Shown in pieces: positions 951 through 15,348 of a DNA stretch of 21,125 bases. The first letter of the stretch is position 1. The number at the start of each line of letters is the position of its first letter. A program made the translations under genes and the position numbers. This DNA is from a virus (lineage: Duplodnaviria; Heunggongvirae; Uroviricota; Caudoviricetes), in the IMG/VR virus record IMGVR_UViG_2526164601_000021, positions 1 through 21,125 of that record. The stretch is one strand, 5' to 3'. The notes beneath the pieces are model-generated. The model saw only the letters and a list, made by a program, of their open reading frames with translations. It ran no database searches and was not told where the DNA came from.

Positions 951-1718
951 TCACCCCATAGATATCGAGGTTTCGGTAATAATACGTTTTGCGTCCAACT
1001 CCCATGCTGTGATCACGTCTGCAATCACACTTATCGGCGCTTGTGTGGCATAAATACGCTCTTCTCCAATTGGTGCTGAAACATCCGTAAAGCCGACTTC
1101 TTTGGCATCCTGTATCGAGCAAATCAGCGGGACCGGGACACGAACAAGGTGAGTGGTTGCTTCAAATTGTGTACCTGTCATCAGGCGAAGCCGTGCGCCC
1201 AGCGAATTACACATCAGACTCATGGTCGCTTTATCAGTTGCCATTAACGTAACGTCATACGTCAGAATGGCCTGGGTGTATTCCAGTTCTGCTAAAGGCG
1301 TTCCGGTATCTGGTTCGCAAAAACAGGCTACTTTTTTGCGGTCAATCTGCTGATCATCGTTGATATAATTGATATCCATAGTGCGTGAGATATTGACCAG
1401 GGGGAGAGCATCCCGGTTAATGTTCTGGTTTTCAGGTTTTCTCCCTTGCCCGGCATTTGCGCGACGAACTGCTTTAAGAAACTCGATCGCATTGTCGAAA
1501 CGGGCCATATAGACACGCTCTGCTGGTGGACGATTCAGGAATGACGCAAAGCGTTTTTCTTCCGGCGCGGGGGCCACCAGTAAGATATCAGAAAAAATGT
1601 TGCTGATTAGCGTCGCAAACGCGTTATCCACGTTTTCAAAGCCCGTGGTCTGGAATTTTCCTGTGCGTAAGGTTTGCCATTCACCGGTTCGCGCCAGGAG
1701 GGTTTTATTTGAAGTCAT
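951..1718 (-). CDS. Hypothetical protein (255 aa), function unknown
   Basis: ORF track; start overlaps the stop of the upstream ORF (ATGA at 1715-1718); no nucleotide-binding or catalytic motif recognised. Confidence 0.5.
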   Translation of the reverse strand: MTSNKTLLARTGEWQTLRTGKFQTTGFENVDNAFATLISNIFSDILLVAPAPEEKRFASFLNRPPAERVYMARFDNAIEFLKAVRRANAGQGRKPENQNINRDALPLVNISRTMDINYINDDQQIDRKKVACFCEPDTGTPLAELEYTQAILTYDVTLMATDKATMSLMCNSLGARLRLMTGTQFEATTHLVRVPVPLICSIQDAKEVGFTDVSAPIGEERIYATQAPISVIADVITAWELDAKRIITETSISMG

Positions 1719-2518
1719 TCGATCACTCCGTTTTGAGTCGTATCAAAATTCCTGGCAGGTATGCAGTAGTAAAGCGAACCAACATGCTGTGTGCCGTAGC
1801 TAAAAATACGGTGCACGTACCACCAGCGGCGGGCTACGCCGTTTACCATCTCTTCATTCCATTCAAGAATTGAGCCGACGGGGACGTTATTTGCTGCAAT
1901 ACGCAGAATCAGAACATCATCGGTTAAGCCATCCTGCTCACCGTCTGCGTCAATTGCATGGAAAGAGTCACGCCCGTCAGGGTTATCCAGCACATAAACA
2001 ATTTCAGGTTCCTGATAGGTCAGTTCACGCTGGTTGTTATCCAGTTCAGTGAATGACTCTTCTCCTGTTTCGTCGCTGACTACCCCAAATGTGCCAACAT
2101 CAGGTCGATATAAGAGAGCCTGAAACGCATCTGGGCTGGATTCAATAATCAGCATCCAGTCTGCGCGGATTTGGTCGTTAAAGGCTTTATGCCCGTTATA
2201 GCGTGCTTTTAACTGTGGAGTCGGTTCTCTGCCAGCCAGGGAAGATGGAAGTATGGCTATATCTGATTCGCCAGCATCCGGAGTAAGGCCACCGTTGCTA
2301 TCAGCAAAATTATCATGGCTATCAGCTTTGGCGGCGGGTTGCTCTTCCAGAATGCTGAATGAATCCGAACCGGTATTGCCATGTTCCGGCGCGCCTCCTG
2401 CATTCGCTTCAATCGGCGCTGGCGTTTCTCTCTGCGTGCTGTCATGTTCTGACTCCTTACTTGCCAGGTTTGCATCGTCAGCAAACCATTCGTCAAAACG
2501 GCCCATAAGCATCCTCAA
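1715..2518 (-). CDS. Hypothetical protein (267 aa) with a strongly acidic, low-complexity N-terminal half and an aromatic-rich C-terminal domain
   Basis: ORF track; N-terminal 150 aa rich in D/E/S/G/A; first gene of a three-gene leftward operon; divergent from the higBA promoter region. Confidence 0.5.
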   Translation of the reverse strand: MRMLMGRFDEWFADDANLASKESEHDSTQRETPAPIEANAGGAPEHGNTGSDSFSILEEQPAAKADSHDNFADSNGGLTPDAGESDIAILPSSLAGREPTPQLKARYNGHKAFNDQIRADWMLIIESSPDAFQALLYRPDVGTFGVVSDETGEESFTELDNNQRELTYQEPEIVYVLDNPDGRDSFHAIDADGEQDGLTDDVLILRIAANNVPVGSILEWNEEMVNGVARRWWYVHRIFSYGTQHVGSLYYCIPARNFDTTQNGVIE

Positions 2519-2600
2519 AGGTCGATCTGTCAGGTATCGAAAGGAAGATTTTCGGGAGATTGTGATTTTGGATGAAGGAGGGGGAATTTATAAAATGCAC

Positions 2601-2629
2601 TTGCGCACAGTGCAACGGTGCGCTATAGT
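2601..2629 (+). promoter_or_regulatory. Putative higBA promoter (-35 TTGCGC, 17 nt spacer, -10 TATAGT) overlapping an inverted repeat GCGCAC..GTGCGC (likely autoregulatory operator)
   Basis: Sequence read directly; located about 40 nt upstream of the higB start, with GGAGG about 12 nt upstream of the ATG. Confidence 0.45.
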
Positions 2630-2668
2630 TATGGCATTCGGTAATCATCACGGAGGATCAAATGACTA

Positions 2669-2971
2669 ATGACCAAAAAAATTAACATAAAGGATTTCAG
2701 GGATGCGTGGCTTGATGATTTTTTTGAATTTTCAACACCACATAGAAAGATACCTCCTGATATTCATATGACATTGTCACGGAAGTTGGACATTATCAAT
2801 GCCGCAACTACCTGTAAGGATTTAAGATCACCACCAGGTAATCGGTATGAGGAACTGTCAGGGAAGCTAAATGGCTATTCATCAGTAAGGGTGAATAAGC
2901 AATATAGGTTAATTTTTAAGTGGGTTAACGGAAAGGCCGAGGACTTGTATCTCGACCCTCACAAATACTAA
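2669..2971 (+). CDS. higB: Type II toxin, HigB family (plasmid-killer / RelE-ParE superfamily)
   Basis: 100 aa; N-terminal FRDAWLDDFFE and C-terminal RVNKQYRLIFKWVNGKAEDLYLDPHKY match hallmark HigB motifs; immediately followed by a HigA-type HTH antitoxin gene. Confidence 0.85.
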   Translation: MTKKINIKDFRDAWLDDFFEFSTPHRKIPPDIHMTLSRKLDIINAATTCKDLRSPPGNRYEELSGKLNGYSSVRVNKQYRLIFKWVNGKAEDLYLDPHKY

Positions 2972-3041
2972 AACAGATACCCGGTTACGGACCGGGTTCT
3001 GACCAGAGTCCACTTAATACGCACGCTAGTAAGGGCAAAAA

Positions 3042-3380
3042 ATGAAACAGGCAACCAGAAAACCGACGACCGTAGGTGATATCCTGCTGTACGAATACCT
3101 GGAGCCGTTAGAGCTGAAGATCAACGAGTTGGCAGAAATACTTCATGTTCATCGTAACACCGTAAGTGCTCTTGTTAATAATAATCGTAAGCTAACGATG
3201 GATATGGCATATCGCCTGGCAAAAGCATTCGATACTTCTGTAGATTTTTGGATTAATCTTCAGACCGCAGTAGACCTGTGGGAAGTCGAAAATGATATGC
3301 GCGTTCAGGAAGAGTTAAGTCGTATCAATACTGCTGAAAAATTTATTTCTCAGCGGAACCTGAATAAAAAAGCAGCCTGA
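3042..3380 (+). CDS. higA: Type II antitoxin, HigA family (XRE-type HTH)
   Basis: 112 aa; TVGDILLYEYLEPLELKINELAEILHVHRNTVSALVNNNRKLTMDMAYRLAKAF..FWINLQ matches the HigA/VapI HTH pattern; downstream of higB. Confidence 0.85.
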   Translation: MKQATRKPTTVGDILLYEYLEPLELKINELAEILHVHRNTVSALVNNNRKLTMDMAYRLAKAFDTSVDFWINLQTAVDLWEVENDMRVQEELSRINTAEKFISQRNLNKKAA

Positions 3381-3401
3381 TATAGTAAAACACATACAAA
3401 A

Positions 3402-3430
3402 AGCCCACTTAGCAAGTGGGCTTTCCTTTG
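3402..3430 (+). terminator. Rho-independent terminator after higA
   Basis: 9 bp stem AGCCCACTT / AAGTGGGCT with a 3 nt loop, followed by a T-rich tract. Confidence 0.6.
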
Positions 3431-3436
3431 TAATTA

Positions 3437-3796
3437 ATGAACATTAAACCTATCCGTACAGAACAAGATTATGAGGCCGCACTGCGTGCGGTCGAACCGA
3501 TGTTCGATAATGAACCGGAAATGAACACACCGGAAGGCGATTTCTTTGAGGTTATGTGTCTTCTCATTGAGGAGTACGAGAAAAAACATTACCCAATTGA
3601 GCCACCATCACCTATTGAGGCCATTAAATTCCGTATGGAACAGCAAGGACTGACCGTGAAGGATCTGGAACCGGCAATTGGTAAGTCAAACCGTGTTTAC
3701 GAAGTGCTTAATGGGACACGAAATTTGACGTTACCTATGATTCGTCGTTTACATGCCCAGTTTGGTATTCCACTGGAAAGTCTGATTGGTGTTTAA
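3437..3796 (+). CDS. HTH (XRE-like) DNA-binding protein with N-terminal extension; antitoxin-like regulator lacking an obvious partner toxin
   Basis: 119 aa; C-terminal GKSNRVYEVLNGTRNLTLPMIRRLHAQFGIPLESLI is HTH-like; architecture resembles HigA-like antitoxins of other TA families. Weak RBS. Confidence 0.55.
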   Translation: MNIKPIRTEQDYEAALRAVEPMFDNEPEMNTPEGDFFEVMCLLIEEYEKKHYPIEPPSPIEAIKFRMEQQGLTVKDLEPAIGKSNRVYEVLNGTRNLTLPMIRRLHAQFGIPLESLIGV

Positions 3797-3858
3797 GTTT
3801 TGCGGTCTGGATGACCGCTGTTTTTATAAAAATAGATACTAGAAATTTGGTAGCATAT

Positions 3859-4440
3859 ATGAGTACAGATTCATCAATAAAGAAGGCAGCCGAATCAGAT
3901 AAAGAAAATGGGGGGGCCATTGATGCCGCCAAGGATGTAATGGAATATGTTATAAAGGATAAATTGTTTAATAAAGTATTTGCATATATTTTTATCTCGT
4001 TTTTAGTTGTTAATTGGCGAGATATATTAATACTAATTAAATCAAAAGAAGATATTCTTTATACACTATCAATAGTATTTGTTGGTGGCAAATTACCGTT
4101 TCTTGGTGGTGTTGTTTTATCACCGTGGGTTGCTCACTTTTTCTTGCCGTTTGTTTATGGCGTGATTGCGTCAATTGTGGCGCCAATAGTTACTCTAGCT
4201 GTATCTTACGTTACAACCAACATATATCATGAAATAAAATTTTTAGATGAAAATGCCTATGAAAATCAACTTAAAAAACAAGCAAAGAAAGCCAAAGAAA
4301 GAATTGATATTGAAATGAATGGTAAGTATAGCCAAAAAGTATTAGACGAAAGAAAAAAAGACCTGGAAGATATTGATAATGCGATTAAAAATAAACAAAT
4401 TAACTTTGATAAAAAAGAAAAGAGTTTGCTGATAATATAA
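3859..4440 (+). CDS. Predicted membrane protein (two TM helices) with Lys/Glu-rich coiled-coil tail; frame may continue to about 4636 after a shift in an A6 run at 4411-4416
   Basis: ORF track frame 3811..4440 (start moved to first ATG); hydrophobic stretches VFAYIFISFLVVNW and LPFLGGVVLSPWVAHFFLPFVYGVIASIVAPIVTLAVSYV; AT-rich relative to neighbours; a start-less open frame follows from about 4413 to 4636. Confidence 0.5.
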   Translation: MSTDSSIKKAAESDKENGGAIDAAKDVMEYVIKDKLFNKVFAYIFISFLVVNWRDILILIKSKEDILYTLSIVFVGGKLPFLGGVVLSPWVAHFFLPFVYGVIASIVAPIVTLAVSYVTTNIYHEIKFLDENAYENQLKKQAKKAKERIDIEMNGKYSQKVLDERKKDLEDIDNAIKNKQINFDKKEKSLLII

Positions 4441-4638
4441 ATTTAACATATGATAACATTCTCAGTTTAAGCGAATTATATAAGAATGGAGGGTTCAAAA
4501 TTGAAAATCAGCAGGATTTATATAAATTCCTTTCTGCAGTAAAGGAATCATCATTCAATAACATAAATTTTGATAAATTATTCTCTGAAATTTCCCGCTT
4601 GCATTCTGAAATGCAAACTGATTTATCAGAAAAATGAA

Positions 4639-4661
4639 AGCCTGGCATAAACCACCAGGCT
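4639..4661 (-). terminator. Hairpin terminator (7 bp stem AGCCTGG / CCAGGCT) at the 3' end of the leftward 4673..5866 gene; T-rich on the minus strand
   Basis: Inverted repeat read from sequence, followed on the minus strand by TTCATTTTTC. Confidence 0.45.
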
Positions 4662-4672
4662 ATATGTGTGGT

Positions 4673-5866
4673 TTATGCTTTTTTTACATACTCCATGAAC
4701 ATTTTTTTAGCTTGTGCTGGTGGTGTTCCAGCCATGACAAGCGCATCAATGAACGCCTGCTTCTTCAGTGCGAACTGATCGGCCAGGCGTTGCTGAAGCT
4801 CCTTGTTTTTCTGTTTCTCACGTTGCAACGCCGCTTCTTTTGCTGCCGCCCGTTTTTTCTGTGCGTCTGACAACTTTCTGGCCTTGGTCAGTTGGTCACG
4901 TAGCTTGTCAATCTTGCCGTTGTCCTTTGCCAGTTTTGTGCTTAAAGCGGCCTGGCGCTTCTGATAGAGCCTCCATTCTCGCTTGGCAGCGTCAACGTTC
5001 GTTTTACTGCTACGATTGCGATTAAACTCCTTCTCGTCTTCTTTTGAGAAGTGTTTGGTTGTACGGCGGCGATCGTCACCAAATGCAATTTGCGTTGCAG
5101 CCTTTTGTAGCGCACGAGCAATACTCATTTGCCAACTGGCGGACTGTAACCGCGTCATTGAGTGGATCACGTGTTTACAGGCGACGCCTTGCAGCTTCGG
5201 GTTGCGAACTTTTGGATAGGCGTATTCTTTTGGCGGTGCCAGGGCAAAGTTACCCGCAGTGGCGATGTAACGATACCAGTATTGATGACGACCACAGTCA
5301 CAATCGAAAGACACTCGCCCGGCGCACAGTGATTTAGTGATTTTGAGAGCTGATTTATCGTCTTCTGCGATGTCATCAACCATCTGATCCCATTCTTCAA
5401 AGCGTATCCGGACGATATGGTGCTGGTGGACGGATATATCCGATGCTTCTACGCGGATATTAATCACATTGTGGCGAAGAGATACGGGTGTAGCTCTTTT
5501 GATACCAGACCCGTCATCCACGGCGTTATTTGCACGCTTAATATCGATAGCCTGGCTGGATGCCACCAGCTGGGCGTATGTGATGCCAGCCGTCTTGCTG
5601 TCATATTTTTCGCGCGTTTTACTCCGTAGCTTTTCGAAGCCTTTCAGATCGTCTCGCGTAAAGAACGTGCCGCCTTTTTTCTTCCCTAACTTGAGAATAT
5701 CTTCGGCGGATTTGTTCCTAAGTCTGCCTGGCGTCAGCGTCCGGTGAGCTTGTCGGCGCTTACGGGTTTGTTCTTTCCTGATAAGGTCGAATAAACGCGT
5801 GAAGTCCTTAGAGGACAGACCGTCAGTGATATAGCGCCCGTCCTGGTTTTTCAGGAAATCAGGCAT
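4673..5866 (-). CDS. Hypothetical protein (397 aa) with a CxC...CxH (SWIM-like) cysteine motif and a basic Lys/Arg/Ala/Gln-rich coiled-coil C-terminus
   Basis: ORF track; motif FDCDCGRH...VACKHV; GGAGA RBS upstream; start overlaps the stop of an upstream small ORF. No family recognised. Confidence 0.55.
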   Translation of the reverse strand: MPDFLKNQDGRYITDGLSSKDFTRLFDLIRKEQTRKRRQAHRTLTPGRLRNKSAEDILKLGKKKGGTFFTRDDLKGFEKLRSKTREKYDSKTAGITYAQLVASSQAIDIKRANNAVDDGSGIKRATPVSLRHNVINIRVEASDISVHQHHIVRIRFEEWDQMVDDIAEDDKSALKITKSLCAGRVSFDCDCGRHQYWYRYIATAGNFALAPPKEYAYPKVRNPKLQGVACKHVIHSMTRLQSASWQMSIARALQKAATQIAFGDDRRRTTKHFSKEDEKEFNRNRSSKTNVDAAKREWRLYQKRQAALSTKLAKDNGKIDKLRDQLTKARKLSDAQKKRAAAKEAALQREKQKNKELQQRLADQFALKKQAFIDALVMAGTPPAQAKKMFMEYVKKA

Positions 5867-6834: not shown

Positions 6835-7170
6835 TTATTTTGCGGCAGGGATAATAGTTTCTGGTAGTTTTAACTCTCTGTATCTTTCCATCCCAACGAT
6901 GATTGCTGCTCTACCATCGGCATGACGGGTCTTGAGAGTCACCTGGCTTGCTCCGGTGCCAGCGGAGATCGTTGGCGTAATTTCGTCTACTAGAACCTTA
7001 AATTTGCTTTTCCGCAGGGCTGCTATAGCTGGAGGAATTTTTTGCTTTTGCTCCAATGCTGACGCAGGAAGGGGTTTTACTTCGTTAATAATGAGAGCAC
7101 CGTCTTTCAGTATTGCAGTGAGCATTTGAGGCTTGCTGGTGGTCAGGCTGAATATTGCGATCTTTTCCAT
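6835..7170 (-). CDS. Hypothetical small protein (111 aa); C-terminal segment weakly reminiscent of Phd/YefM-type antitoxin fold
   Basis: ORF track; strong RBS (GGAGG) upstream; segment VTLKTRHADGRAAIIVGMERYRELK resembles the Phd/YefM N-domain pattern (weak, unverified). Confidence 0.45.
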   Translation of the reverse strand: MEKIAIFSLTTSKPQMLTAILKDGALIINEVKPLPASALEQKQKIPPAIAALRKSKFKVLVDEITPTISAGTGASQVTLKTRHADGRAAIIVGMERYRELKLPETIIPAAK

Positions 7171-7221: not shown

Positions 7222-7531
7222 TGCTTTGGCGTTATGACTCCCTACCGCGCTTCGGCTGAAAGTTAATCGTCAAAAGAACCTTCAACGGGAGCCGTTAGCG
7301 CGATGGATTATGTGCATTTTGTGATTTCCAAAATAGTGTCAACCACTTTTTGTGGTATTTTATTTTGACCGAAATTTGGCCTAAATCATGTTGATTTGGC
7401 TGATTATTTTTATAACATAAAAGTCATTTTGATTGCATGAAGGTCTGTGCAGTGAAGTTAAGGGTTTTAGGGACCGCGCTCGCGGCTAAGATGGTAAAGT
7501 ATGGAGTTAATGAAATGTTTTTTATAAAAAA

Positions 7532-9519: not shown

Positions 9520-10158
9520 TTAAAGGCTTTCCGGAAGGGGGGCCAGGGCCACAATGGAGCGTCGCGCAAGCAAACCATCTGGAGTTAAAAACTCATGCGT
9601 ATCGGTGGGAATCCGGAAAGCGTTGACCAGGTTGCGACATTTGGCTTCAGTCAGGCCACATTTCGCCGCCAGCTGGCGGTAGCCAATGTAGCCTTCCGGA
9701 ATATTGCCTTTCTTGATTTGCTCGACGGTTTCAGCGACTTCGGACACTTGTGCCGATACTTCGGCTACCTGGGCATTAACGGCGTTGATCCGGCGTTCAT
9801 GCTCAAGATGCATTTGCGCCATTTCAGCCAGGATTTCGGCTTTTGATTTTAACTGTACCCGGGCATTCTCCAGTTCGCGCCAGCGGTCCACCAGCCGGGC
9901 GGTAAATTCGGGAGAAAGCTGTGCGACGACAATGATACTGTCACGCTTGCCTTGTTCGCCTTCAAAGATGTAAGCCTTGGAAAATCGACGAGGGCCAACT
10001 GATTGTTTATTTTCAATTTCCTCAATTTGAGGAAATTGAATGACACCACCTTTAGTTAATACTTCAATGGTACGCTTCACATTATCATGACGCTTACCTA
10101 CCAGTTCCGCGATCTCAATACTGGTCATTGTCGCTTTTTGAGAGATGGACAGATTCAT
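9520..10158 (-). CDS. Phage regulatory protein, Rha family (antirepressor-like)
   Basis: 212 aa; N-terminal TSIEIAELVGKRHDNVKRTIEVLTKGGVIQFPQIEE matches the Rha-domain pattern; coiled-coil middle region; start overlaps the stop of the upstream ORF. Confidence 0.75.
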   Translation of the reverse strand: MNLSISQKATMTSIEIAELVGKRHDNVKRTIEVLTKGGVIQFPQIEEIENKQSVGPRRFSKAYIFEGEQGKRDSIIVVAQLSPEFTARLVDRWRELENARVQLKSKAEILAEMAQMHLEHERRINAVNAQVAEVSAQVSEVAETVEQIKKGNIPEGYIGYRQLAAKCGLTEAKCRNLVNAFRIPTDTHEFLTPDGLLARRSIVALAPLPESL

Positions 10159-12961: not shown

Positions 12962-13135
12962 AGGTTTAACGACCCGCACAACTGGCAGAGCGTAACGCTG
13001 AGTATGTACGGAAATTTCCCGACTTGAGAAAGCGTGTGCTGCGCTAGCGGCGGAGAATGCTGGGCTGAAACATGCAATGGCTGTAACTCTGAGCATGTGT
13101 CGGTCACGGATGCAGGGCAGGCCGGAGTTGCCGCA

Positions 13136-14607: not shown

Positions 14608-14852
14608 GTAATTCCGCACGACTACAGCTTGGTTTTTCACCGCTATCAAAAACCATCGTGTTGGCAAAAATGCGTGACTTAGGGGATGGAACAAAACGTC
14701 GTGTCGGCAATGATCGCGGTCGTGATGTAACCAACGAGGCCGCACAACTCGTTTGGCATCTAGTCATGGCTGAAGGCGGTGAAATTAATTGGGAGCTGGA
14801 TGATGGTTCTCGCATGGTATTGAAGGCAGAAAAGCAGGAGCCACCACAGTGA
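14604..14852 (+). CDS. Hypothetical protein (82 aa)
   Basis: ORF track; GTG start overlapping the previous stop (GTGA). Confidence 0.4.
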   Translation: MSNSARLQLGFSPLSKTIVLAKMRDLGDGTKRRVGNDRGRDVTNEAAQLVWHLVMAEGGEINWELDDGSRMVLKAEKQEPPQ

Positions 14853-15011
14853 ATATCGACACCACGATAACAATCGATACGGCCCTAAATACCGGTCTGG
14901 CACTTTTCGGTTGGCTTTACATCATGTCCCGTACCTGGCGATGGCTGGGTTCCATTTTTCCTAAAAAGAGTGGAAAAAACGGCGCAAACAGGAACTACGC
15001 CAGAAGGCATT
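14849..15011 (+). CDS. Possible small membrane ORF (about 52 aa, GTG start); adjacent frame stays open into the next gene across an A-run
   Basis: Manual translation: MNIDTTITIDTALNTGLALFGWLYIMSRTWRWLGSIFPKK..; GTGA overlap with the previous stop; below the ORF-track size cut-off. Confidence 0.25.
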
Positions 15012-15123
15012 AGAAGCGTTCTATGACGCATTTGAGCTTAGCCGCATTGAACCAGGCACAACAGCCAGAATAGCGACAAAAGGCGAACCTGATGATAGTG
15101 ATGTTCAGACAGGAGAAAACCAA

Positions 15124-15348
15124 ATGACAGAACAGACGATGACAAATCGCGAACTTGTTGATGCCGCGATTGAACTTGCTGGCGATTTTTATTCCATGAT
15201 GGGTTACGAGCATCGACCTGGTTTTAAGTATTGGGAGTCACCGCATCCGCAAGAACAACAGGTGTTTGAAATGGCCTGCCGTGCTTTTGAGGTTATTCGC
15301 GGTTCTGATGTGATGGAGGCCGTTGCCGACTTGGAGGATGAAGAGTGA
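15124..15348 (+). CDS. Hypothetical acidic protein (74 aa)
   Basis: ORF track; AGGAG RBS about 9 nt upstream. Confidence 0.45.
   Translation: MTEQTMTNRELVDAAIELAGDFYSMMGYEHRPGFKYWESPHPQEQQVFEMACRAFEVIRGSDVMEAVADLEDEE

Follow-up and report, generated by a model that had tools for sequence, protein, structure and literature searches.

The DNA analyzed here, referred to as the window, is a stretch of 21,125 nucleotides (nt) from the virus record IMGVR_UViG_2526164601_000021, and the region under study is a group of four genes located between two tail-gene homologues at approximately 2570-4686. As a whole, the window is 95.8% identical to Escherichia phage D6, aligned over 76% of its length, and for the region 2400-4900 the identity is 96.8% over 71% of the region length. 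D6 is a P1-family plasmid prophage, and a second addiction system of D6-like plasmids has already been recognized in their higBA genes (PMC6799933). The region 2400-4900 also matched 122 PLSDB plasmids from Escherichia, Salmonella and Shigella, nearly all of which are non-mobilisable and about 90 kb in size. In a scan of GTDB species-representative genomes, no relatives were recovered.

On the left side, the region is bordered by a homologue of the P1 tail gene 7 (1715-2518, minus strand; D6 orf69), whose product shows 98.5% amino acid identity to D6 gp7, and on the right side by a homologue of the P1 tail gene 25 (4673-5866, minus strand; D6 orf74) with 99% amino acid identity to D6. The four genes in between lie on the plus strand, opposite to their neighbors on both sides, and the same four genes are annotated at this site in D6 (orf70-orf73). 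They are higB (2669-2971), higA (3042-3380), a second higA-like gene encoding a helix-turn-helix (HTH) protein (3437-3796) and a gene for a membrane protein with a long helix (3859-4637). Since the genes 7 and 25 of P1 itself are separated by only 3 bp, the stretch was read as an inserted island that is absent from P1. Compared with a GC content of 0.49 in the flanking genes, the first three genes of the island have 0.38-0.44 and the last one has 0.298, which bears out the marked AT-richness that a first-pass annotation of the sequence had attributed to this gene. The same annotation had suspected accessory cargo, and the comparison revealed an opposite-strand, low-GC insert that separates two tail genes adjoining each other in P1.

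Taking the relatives together, the region likely (probability roughly 0.7) represents an accessory island of mosaic structure, situated at a hot spot of recombination in D6-like (P1-family) phage-plasmids. It would be composed of three independently reassorting modules: the higBA cassette, the HTH gene and the gene of the membrane protein. The identities of the genes, the boundaries of the modules, their separability and the structure of their alleles are directly visible in the alignments. Among D6-like loci, the protein identity is 97-100% for the tail-gene homologues and higBA, except in the diverged locus L026, and 93-100% for the HTH proteins. The membrane proteins, by comparison, occur as alleles with 35-99% identity, and it is only across 3800-4650 that the nucleotide identity drops to 50-80%. 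One and the same membrane-gene allele is combined with either of two toxin-antitoxin (TA) cassettes, and several alleles exist next to each of the cassettes. That the site between the tail genes 7 and 25 serves as a hot spot at which TA cassettes and membrane-gene alleles are reassorted is a new, descriptive point. All features listed in the first-pass annotation were recovered at or near their positions. The island was thus correctly described but is a largely ordinary accessory island, and the interest that is left concerns the uncharacterised family of the membrane protein.

The higBA cassette and the orphan antitoxin

The first module (2570-3436, plus strand) is an exchangeable cassette consisting of promoter, higB, higA and a hairpin, which takes the place of the promoter and toxin gene of allelic plasmids, as determined by alignment with plasmid pZ1323HEC0010-2. 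The higB gene encodes a RelE/GraT-type toxin of 100 amino acids. It matched the complete PF05015 profile (positions 1-91 of 91; E = 4e-35) with 120.5 bits at a gathering cutoff of 27, phrog_3066 and the GraT structure 6F8S_B of the PDB (E = 3e-14), and is also related to the solved structure of Proteus HigB. The gene directly downstream codes for the cognate HTH antitoxin HigA (112 amino acids), which was assigned to HTH_3, to phrog_1381 and, with 102.5 bits compared to a cutoff of 47.7, to the equivalog TIGR02607. The pair has the toxin-first order of reverse TA systems, and both proteins are 100% identical to their counterparts in D6, where HigB is the product of orf70. Pfam searches suggested in the first-pass annotation returned PF05015 for higB and HTH_3 for higA as well as for the gene at 3437-3796.

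Upstream of higB, a -35-like sequence (TTGCGC, 2601-2606) is followed after 17 nt by a -10-like sequence (TATAGT, 2624-2629). This putative higBA promoter (2596-2629, including the repeats) is overlapped by operator-like inverted repeats at 2603-2611/2615-2623, together with 2596-2601/2609-2614. It represents our reading of the sequence; a consensus promoter scan did not call it because its -35 element agrees with the consensus at three of six positions only. At the other end, the cassette is closed by a terminator-like hairpin (3400-3424) with an 11-bp stem and a weak T tail (-17.9 kcal/mol, z = -4.7). The earlier description of higBA as a unit with its own promoter, operator-like inverted repeat and terminator is in agreement with such a self-contained cassette, the promoter being the part that was read rather than called. 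The 70 nt that separate higB from higA contain another stable, GC-rich hairpin (2979-2997; -16.9 kcal/mol, z = -3.8), which might affect how toxin and antitoxin are expressed or processed relative to each other.

The higBA cassette is 99-100% identical across plasmids that differ in their downstream genes, and the synonymous divergence (dS) of higB is 0. By analogy with the GraT and Proteus toxins, HigB would be a ribosome-dependent RNase toxin paired with a HigA repressor-antitoxin, which would make the two genes an autonomous addiction cassette. Based on the established knowledge of HigBA systems, higBA is most likely an autoregulated addiction module that stabilizes the plasmid prophage by post-segregational killing. 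This role is already assumed in the literature on D6-like plasmids (PMC6799933).

At another place, between the homologues of gene 26 and mat, an extra pair of a RelE/HigB-like toxin and a HigA exists in some D6-like relatives (L012, 6380-7100; L002 on plasmid pB2C_96, 5384-5503), which is missing from the window. TA cassettes may therefore have a further hot spot in the gene 26-mat interval.

The HTH protein encoded downstream of the higBA cassette, named HigA2 here, is the second module (3437-3796, plus strand). It comprises 119 amino acids with an N-terminal domain and a C-terminal HTH domain (HTH_3). Its residues 6-112 align with HigA of E. coli K-12 (PDB 5IFG_B/5YCL_A; E = 2.5e-8), from the N-domain through the HTH, and it is 96.6% identical to the HTH protein of D6. 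Members of the HigA2 family were found on 1084 PLSDB plasmids, often annotated beside a "HigB family toxin". Within the window, no toxin gene adjoins HigA2, so that the initial description of a second HigA-like gene without an adjacent toxin proved to be correct. The picture is different in plasmid pZ1323HEC0010-2 and the IMG/VR loci L023 and L024, where a 99% identical HigA2 begins 4-6 bp after the gene of a K-12-type HigB of 100 amino acids (HigB2). The HigB2 protein of the allelic plasmids matched K-12 HigB (5IFG_A; E = 1e-7) and the PADLOC profile PD-Lambda-2_A (E = 1e-41).

In the alignment of the islands of the window and pZ1323HEC0010-2, homology stops at about 2568 and resumes exactly at the ATG of HigA2 (3437). 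Between these positions, the window contains promoter, higB, higA and hairpin, the other island type promoter and higB2. The higB2 promoter is flanked by two TCCCA-N3-TGGGA palindromes, one of which is situated between -35 and -10, and both are predicted to be HigA operators. In the window, this palindrome does not occur beyond chance expectation. The Shine-Dalgarno sequence GGAG ahead of the HigA2 start codon is likewise lost in the window, where HigA2 sits directly 3' of the hairpin, devoid of a toxin, of the predicted operators and of a ribosome-binding site. Sorted by island type, 21 PLSDB records contain HigB2 and 42 a full-length HigA2 at 90% identity or more, and in 71 records HigA2 is reduced to an N-terminal stub of 66 amino acids. 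In this last type, the HTH domain and the hairpin are deleted and the fourth gene follows directly.

Judged from these alignments, the window is an intermediate stage of a toxin-swap and decay series. The higBA cassette would have replaced the HigB2 gene and, by that, would have stripped HigA2 of its toxin, of the promoter with its two predicted operators and of the Shine-Dalgarno sequence. In most relatives, HigA2 would since have lost its HTH domain. We infer that HigA2 is a relic, the antitoxin of a HigB-HigA pair that was earlier present at the site. What appeared as an orphan regulator would then be the trace of a toxin swap, whose intermediate and decayed stages are visible in public plasmids. 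At most, HigA2 would act as an anti-addiction antitoxin against rival plasmids carrying HigB2. Replicon cluster 1704 includes both TA types, and it is conceivable, albeit with low confidence, that the orphan HigA could still neutralise the HigB2 of rival phage-plasmids. The orphan antitoxin provides a tidy natural case of possible anti-addiction between competing phage-plasmids.

The membrane-protein gene and its alleles

The third module is the gene of the membrane protein (3859-4637, plus strand), a homologue of D6 orf73 whose intact product has 259 amino acids. In the window, it is read as 3859-4440 and 4440-4637 through a frameshift at an A6 homopolymer (4411-4416; A7 in intact copies). 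The two open reading frames are the halves of one protein, since a copy in pZ1323HEC0010-2 with 99.4% nucleotide identity possesses A7 and encodes the intact protein. The AT-rich gene, which had been outlined as 3859-4440 and possibly to about 4636, hence runs to 4637 and is split by one missing A. Its conserved start is at 3859 (MSTDSS...). An upstream ATG at 3811 is located inside a hairpin, and its frame is not open in D6. This hairpin is intrinsic-terminator-like and includes a U tract (3802-3827; -11.3 kcal/mol, z = -3.4); the stem-loop at 3802-3818 is followed by UGUUUUUAU. Another hairpin (4644-4679) with a T run, together covering 4644-4686 (-18.4 kcal/mol, z = -3.8), is placed between the convergent membrane gene and gene 25 homologue. 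Both structures had been foreseen as a hairpin before the membrane gene and a terminator region after it.

The split raises the question of whether the frameshift is real and the membrane gene a decaying pseudogene or a non-functional, AT-rich filler. The same allele indeed shows different homopolymer indels in three sequences, the A6 of the window, a G8 instead of the G7 at window positions 3910-3916 in locus L010 (IMGVR_UViG_2534682060_000007, ~4044-4060) and an indel at an A7 run near window positions 4354-4360 in protein P0004. Moreover, the copies examined on Klebsiella plasmids are interrupted by an insertion sequence (IS). On the other hand, the family is conserved across distant bacteria, and frameshifts relative to D6 are distributed over the window. 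They were detected at ~6101 in the gene 26 homologue, at 6864 in mat, at 7518 and 7740 in simB and at 9537 in ant, furthermore at 12363-12396 in the homologue of orf89, at 13091 in that of orf91 and possibly at 14849-15124 in that of orf94, which points to sequencing errors and not to the decay of one gene. At least six other split genes of the window retain 82-100% amino acid identity to D6 (mostly more than 88%). Because these frameshifted genes include essential baseplate/morphogenesis and maturation genes, the A6 is probably, and most simply, explained by a sequencing or assembly error, and it is highly improbable that the membrane gene is a pseudogene. In general, the many frameshifts of the window suggest an error-prone assembly or a decaying prophage. 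The indels in L010 and P0004 could be sequencing errors or the result of slipped-strand switching. Phase variation at the G7/A7 tracts, for which the three copies with different indels might speak, was downgraded once the frameshifts in at least six further genes of the window were taken into account.

The membrane protein matched phrog_8191 over its full length (residues 10-259 against profile positions 2-242 of 242; E = 1e-103). This profile was also matched by all 25 aligned relatives, and all matching PHROGs are of unknown function. No meaningful Pfam, NCBIfam or PADLOC assignment was obtained for the protein, nor did any PADLOC-DB v2 profile match one of three D6-like alleles. Distant family members yielded only scattered PADLOC matches, each restricted to one or two members and mostly to coiled-coil proteins. 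The matches to Ppl, DUF5687, LmuB and JetC were dismissed as coiled-coil noise far under the cutoffs. An exhaustive profile search in 1.84 billion proteins resulted in 63 cluster representatives, and the members of the family are spread across distant bacteria.

The protein has hydrophobic segments at residues ~40-60 and 89-120, and beyond them extends a helix rich in Lys and Glu. An AlphaFold2 model calculated with 25 sequences (predicted local distance difference test, pLDDT, 80) contains helices at 39-61 and 66-74, a continuous helix at 89-211 and a small helical C-terminal domain. Segments and model are both in line with the original description of a protein with two transmembrane (TM) helices and a long Lys/Glu-rich helical tail. 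Within the family, the order of elements is conserved: an N-terminal IKD(K/R)L-N helix, a TM helix ending with NWQ-ILI-KSK, a short helix, a second TM helix carrying LP...G..AS...P..T, the long helix and the small C-terminal domain. In the proposed topology, the N-terminus would be cytoplasmic and the two TM helices joined by the short helix, and a cytoplasmic helix of about 90 residues would lead to the small C-terminal domain. A holin was ruled out for this protein of 259 amino acids with a long cytoplasmic helix, which is encoded between tail genes on the opposite strand and did not match any holin family of Pfam or PHROG.

Between the membrane-gene alleles, dS ranges from 0.8 to more than 2, and the ratio of nonsynonymous to synonymous divergence (dN/dS) from 0.2 to 0.4. 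As far as these values indicate, the variants are old alleles under purifying selection that were shuffled into a young backbone, and not the products of fast evolution in situ. Positive selection on the gene received no support, as dN/dS is below 1 except in a short, poorly aligned N-terminal tail and dS is saturated.

Independence of the modules and possible roles

In the first-pass annotation, it was proposed that the HTH protein controls the membrane protein or is its antitoxin. The two genes would then form a module of the abortive infection (Abi) or holin-like type, in which a toxic membrane effector is regulated or neutralised by HigA2. The window, D6 and many relatives have the two genes side by side on one strand, and no D6-like island has the membrane gene without at least the N-domain of HigA2 in front of it. 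Furthermore, the divergence of HigA2 climbs towards the membrane gene, and the two genes are therefore genetically linked. The cognate partner of HigA2, however, is the K-12-type HigB2, its predicted operator is absent from the window and the terminator-like hairpin stands between the two genes. This hairpin is even kept in plasmid pF719-4, in which higB, higA, the HTH gene and the hairpin are followed by the gene 25 homologue and the membrane gene is missing. Conversely, the 71 stub-type plasmids possess the membrane gene but not the HTH domain. The presence/absence comparison thus revealed that the two genes are separable in relatives, for which reason the proposed link is not supported, and a two-gene module appears very improbable.

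Homologues of the membrane protein that stand alone point in the same direction. On an Enterobacter plasmid, the gene is located beside dcm, a DUF4928 gene and an IS fragment; there, as in the P2-like and lambdoid prophages and the islands named below, no HigA gene is a neighbor. In a P2-like prophage (L027-L030, 6001-6651), the distant homologue P0022, which is indexed in 42 blocks of the collection, is encoded by the only opposite-strand gene between the baseplate gene V and the tail gene S. Other distant homologues occur in the nin region of a lambdoid prophage, in a genomic island together with methylase, DUF1173, DUF4942 and H-NS genes, and in a chromosomal islet. In two cases, a family member closely follows other genes. 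In L039 (4309-5732), an element that also carries resolvases, it begins 12 bp downstream of a DUF4145 protein gene, and in L043 (3068-4726) the distance to a preceding TacA-TacT (GNAT toxin) pair is 93 nt. These two adjacencies may be recurrent partnerships.

A second possibility is that HigB2, HigA2 and the membrane protein once formed a three-component system resembling PD-lambda-2 or toxin-antitoxin-chaperone (TAC) systems, with the third gene as sensor or effector of defence, and that the window is a toxin-exchanged derivative of it. This trio is present in L003, L023 and L024 and, with all three members deeply diverged, in L026 at the gene 7/25 site, and all three genes were transferred together to large IncFIB plasmids of Klebsiella. 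The family member 93 nt downstream of TacA-TacT fits this idea, and PD-lambda-2 demonstrates that defence by a HigB/HigA-like pair can depend on a third gene (PMC9519451). By contrast, most contexts of the family are without a TA neighbor, about 100 D6-like plasmids lacking HigB2 keep the membrane gene under purifying selection, and TA cassettes and membrane-gene alleles reassort freely. As the hot spot accounts for the co-residence of the three genes without any functional link, an ancestral three-component system seems improbable, and the recurrent trio was treated as co-residence in the hot spot.

Several observations nevertheless weigh against the interpretation as a mosaic of independent modules with a decayed antitoxin and a candidate exclusion gene. 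The order HigB2-HigA2-membrane protein exists at two deep levels of divergence, in the D6-like elements of E. coli and in the Klebsiella-type P1-like locus L026. The L026 trio is located at the same gene 7/25 site, and its proteins are deeply diverged, with identities of 25% (HigB2), 29% (HigA2) and 35% (membrane protein). A copy of the L026-type trio was also transferred to Klebsiella IncFIB plasmids. In K. pneumoniae plasmid p3IncF (L008, NZ_CP089990, 4219-6812), the trio is nearly identical to that of L026, with the membrane gene broken by an IS. Among the 55 Klebsiella plasmids listed, those beyond L008 match only the N-terminal part of the membrane protein, and an overlapping IS903B transposase was also detected. 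The recurring order leaves room for an ancestral functional link. In addition, all D6-like islands with the membrane gene retain at least the 66 N-terminal amino acids of HigA2. The dN/dS values of full-length orphan HigA2 alleles (0.06-0.10) could mean that the gene is still functional, but the divergence may predate the loss of the toxin. Finally, fold searches with the model of the membrane protein gave only generic long-helix matches, and no annotated homologue assigns a function to this protein.

Returning to the mosaic island, the membrane gene is, by its sequence context, most plausibly a "moron", an accessory gene independent of its neighbors, and a candidate for exclusion or defence. 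Its product would be made in the lysogen and would act at the inner membrane against incoming phages or rival elements. A role in superinfection exclusion or abortive infection may be suggested with low confidence. The family is small and uncharacterised and recurs as a stand-alone gene in unrelated temperate phages, which makes it a reasonable candidate for an exclusion and defence screen. To specialists, neither exclusion nor anti-addiction will be surprising until a phenotype is shown.

A more far-reaching version of this idea is that phrog_8191-type proteins are an unrecognised, single-gene and allele-specific exclusion or Abi determinant, whose ancient alleles are maintained by frequency-dependent selection, and that the orphan HigA is an anti-addiction factor. 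We regard this as tentative and on the whole unlikely. If it were true, P1/D6-like, P2-like and lambdoid temperate phages would have an exclusion determinant in common, and the orphan HigA would enable the phage-plasmid to displace HigB2-type rivals that share replicon cluster 1704.

Comparison with known systems

The closest known counterpart is D6 (NC_050154, orf70-orf73, 67514-69432), which has the same four genes in the same order at the same gene 7/25 site. The fourth gene, however, is another allele, since the orf73 product consists of 242 amino acids and is 44% identical, and the allele of the window is frameshifted. With GraTA of Pseudomonas putida and HigBA of Proteus vulgaris, the higBA cassette shares the toxin-first operon, the combination of PF05015 and TIGR02607 and an inverted repeat over the putative promoter. 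Unlike these systems, the pair of the window resides on a phage-plasmid within a cluster of tail genes. HigA2 resembles the antitoxin of the E. coli K-12 HigB-HigA system (YgjN-YgjM; PDB 5IFG, 6JQ4), to which it aligned over residues 6-112, and in the allelic plasmids a HigB homologue is encoded 4-6 bp upstream. In the window, by contrast, toxin, promoter and predicted operators of such a system are missing.

Concerning PD-lambda-2, the PADLOC profile PD-Lambda-2_B matched HigA2 (E = 5e-43) and PD-Lambda-2_A the allelic HigB2, and a third gene follows in both cases. In this system, an ImmA/IrrE peptidase domain at the C-terminus defines component B (Vassallo et al. 2022, PMC9519451). HigA2 covers only the positions 1-119 of 402 of the B profile and has no such domain, and was consequently rejected as a member. 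As to the other components, the HigB of the window did not give a PADLOC match to component A, and neither the membrane protein nor two other alleles of it matched component C. The third gene differs as well, as it encodes a membrane protein without a PADLOC match which is not similar to the P4 antitoxin.

P22 SieA and SieB, lambda RexB and T4 Imm are prophage or phage membrane proteins of the superinfection exclusion or abortive infection type. To annotated exclusion and defence proteins, the membrane protein of the island shows no similarity in sequence, profile or fold. The resemblance, drawn from general knowledge, is one of organization: a small inner-membrane protein, encoded by an AT-rich, opposite-strand accessory gene of temperate phages, which exists as diverged alleles in a conserved backbone.

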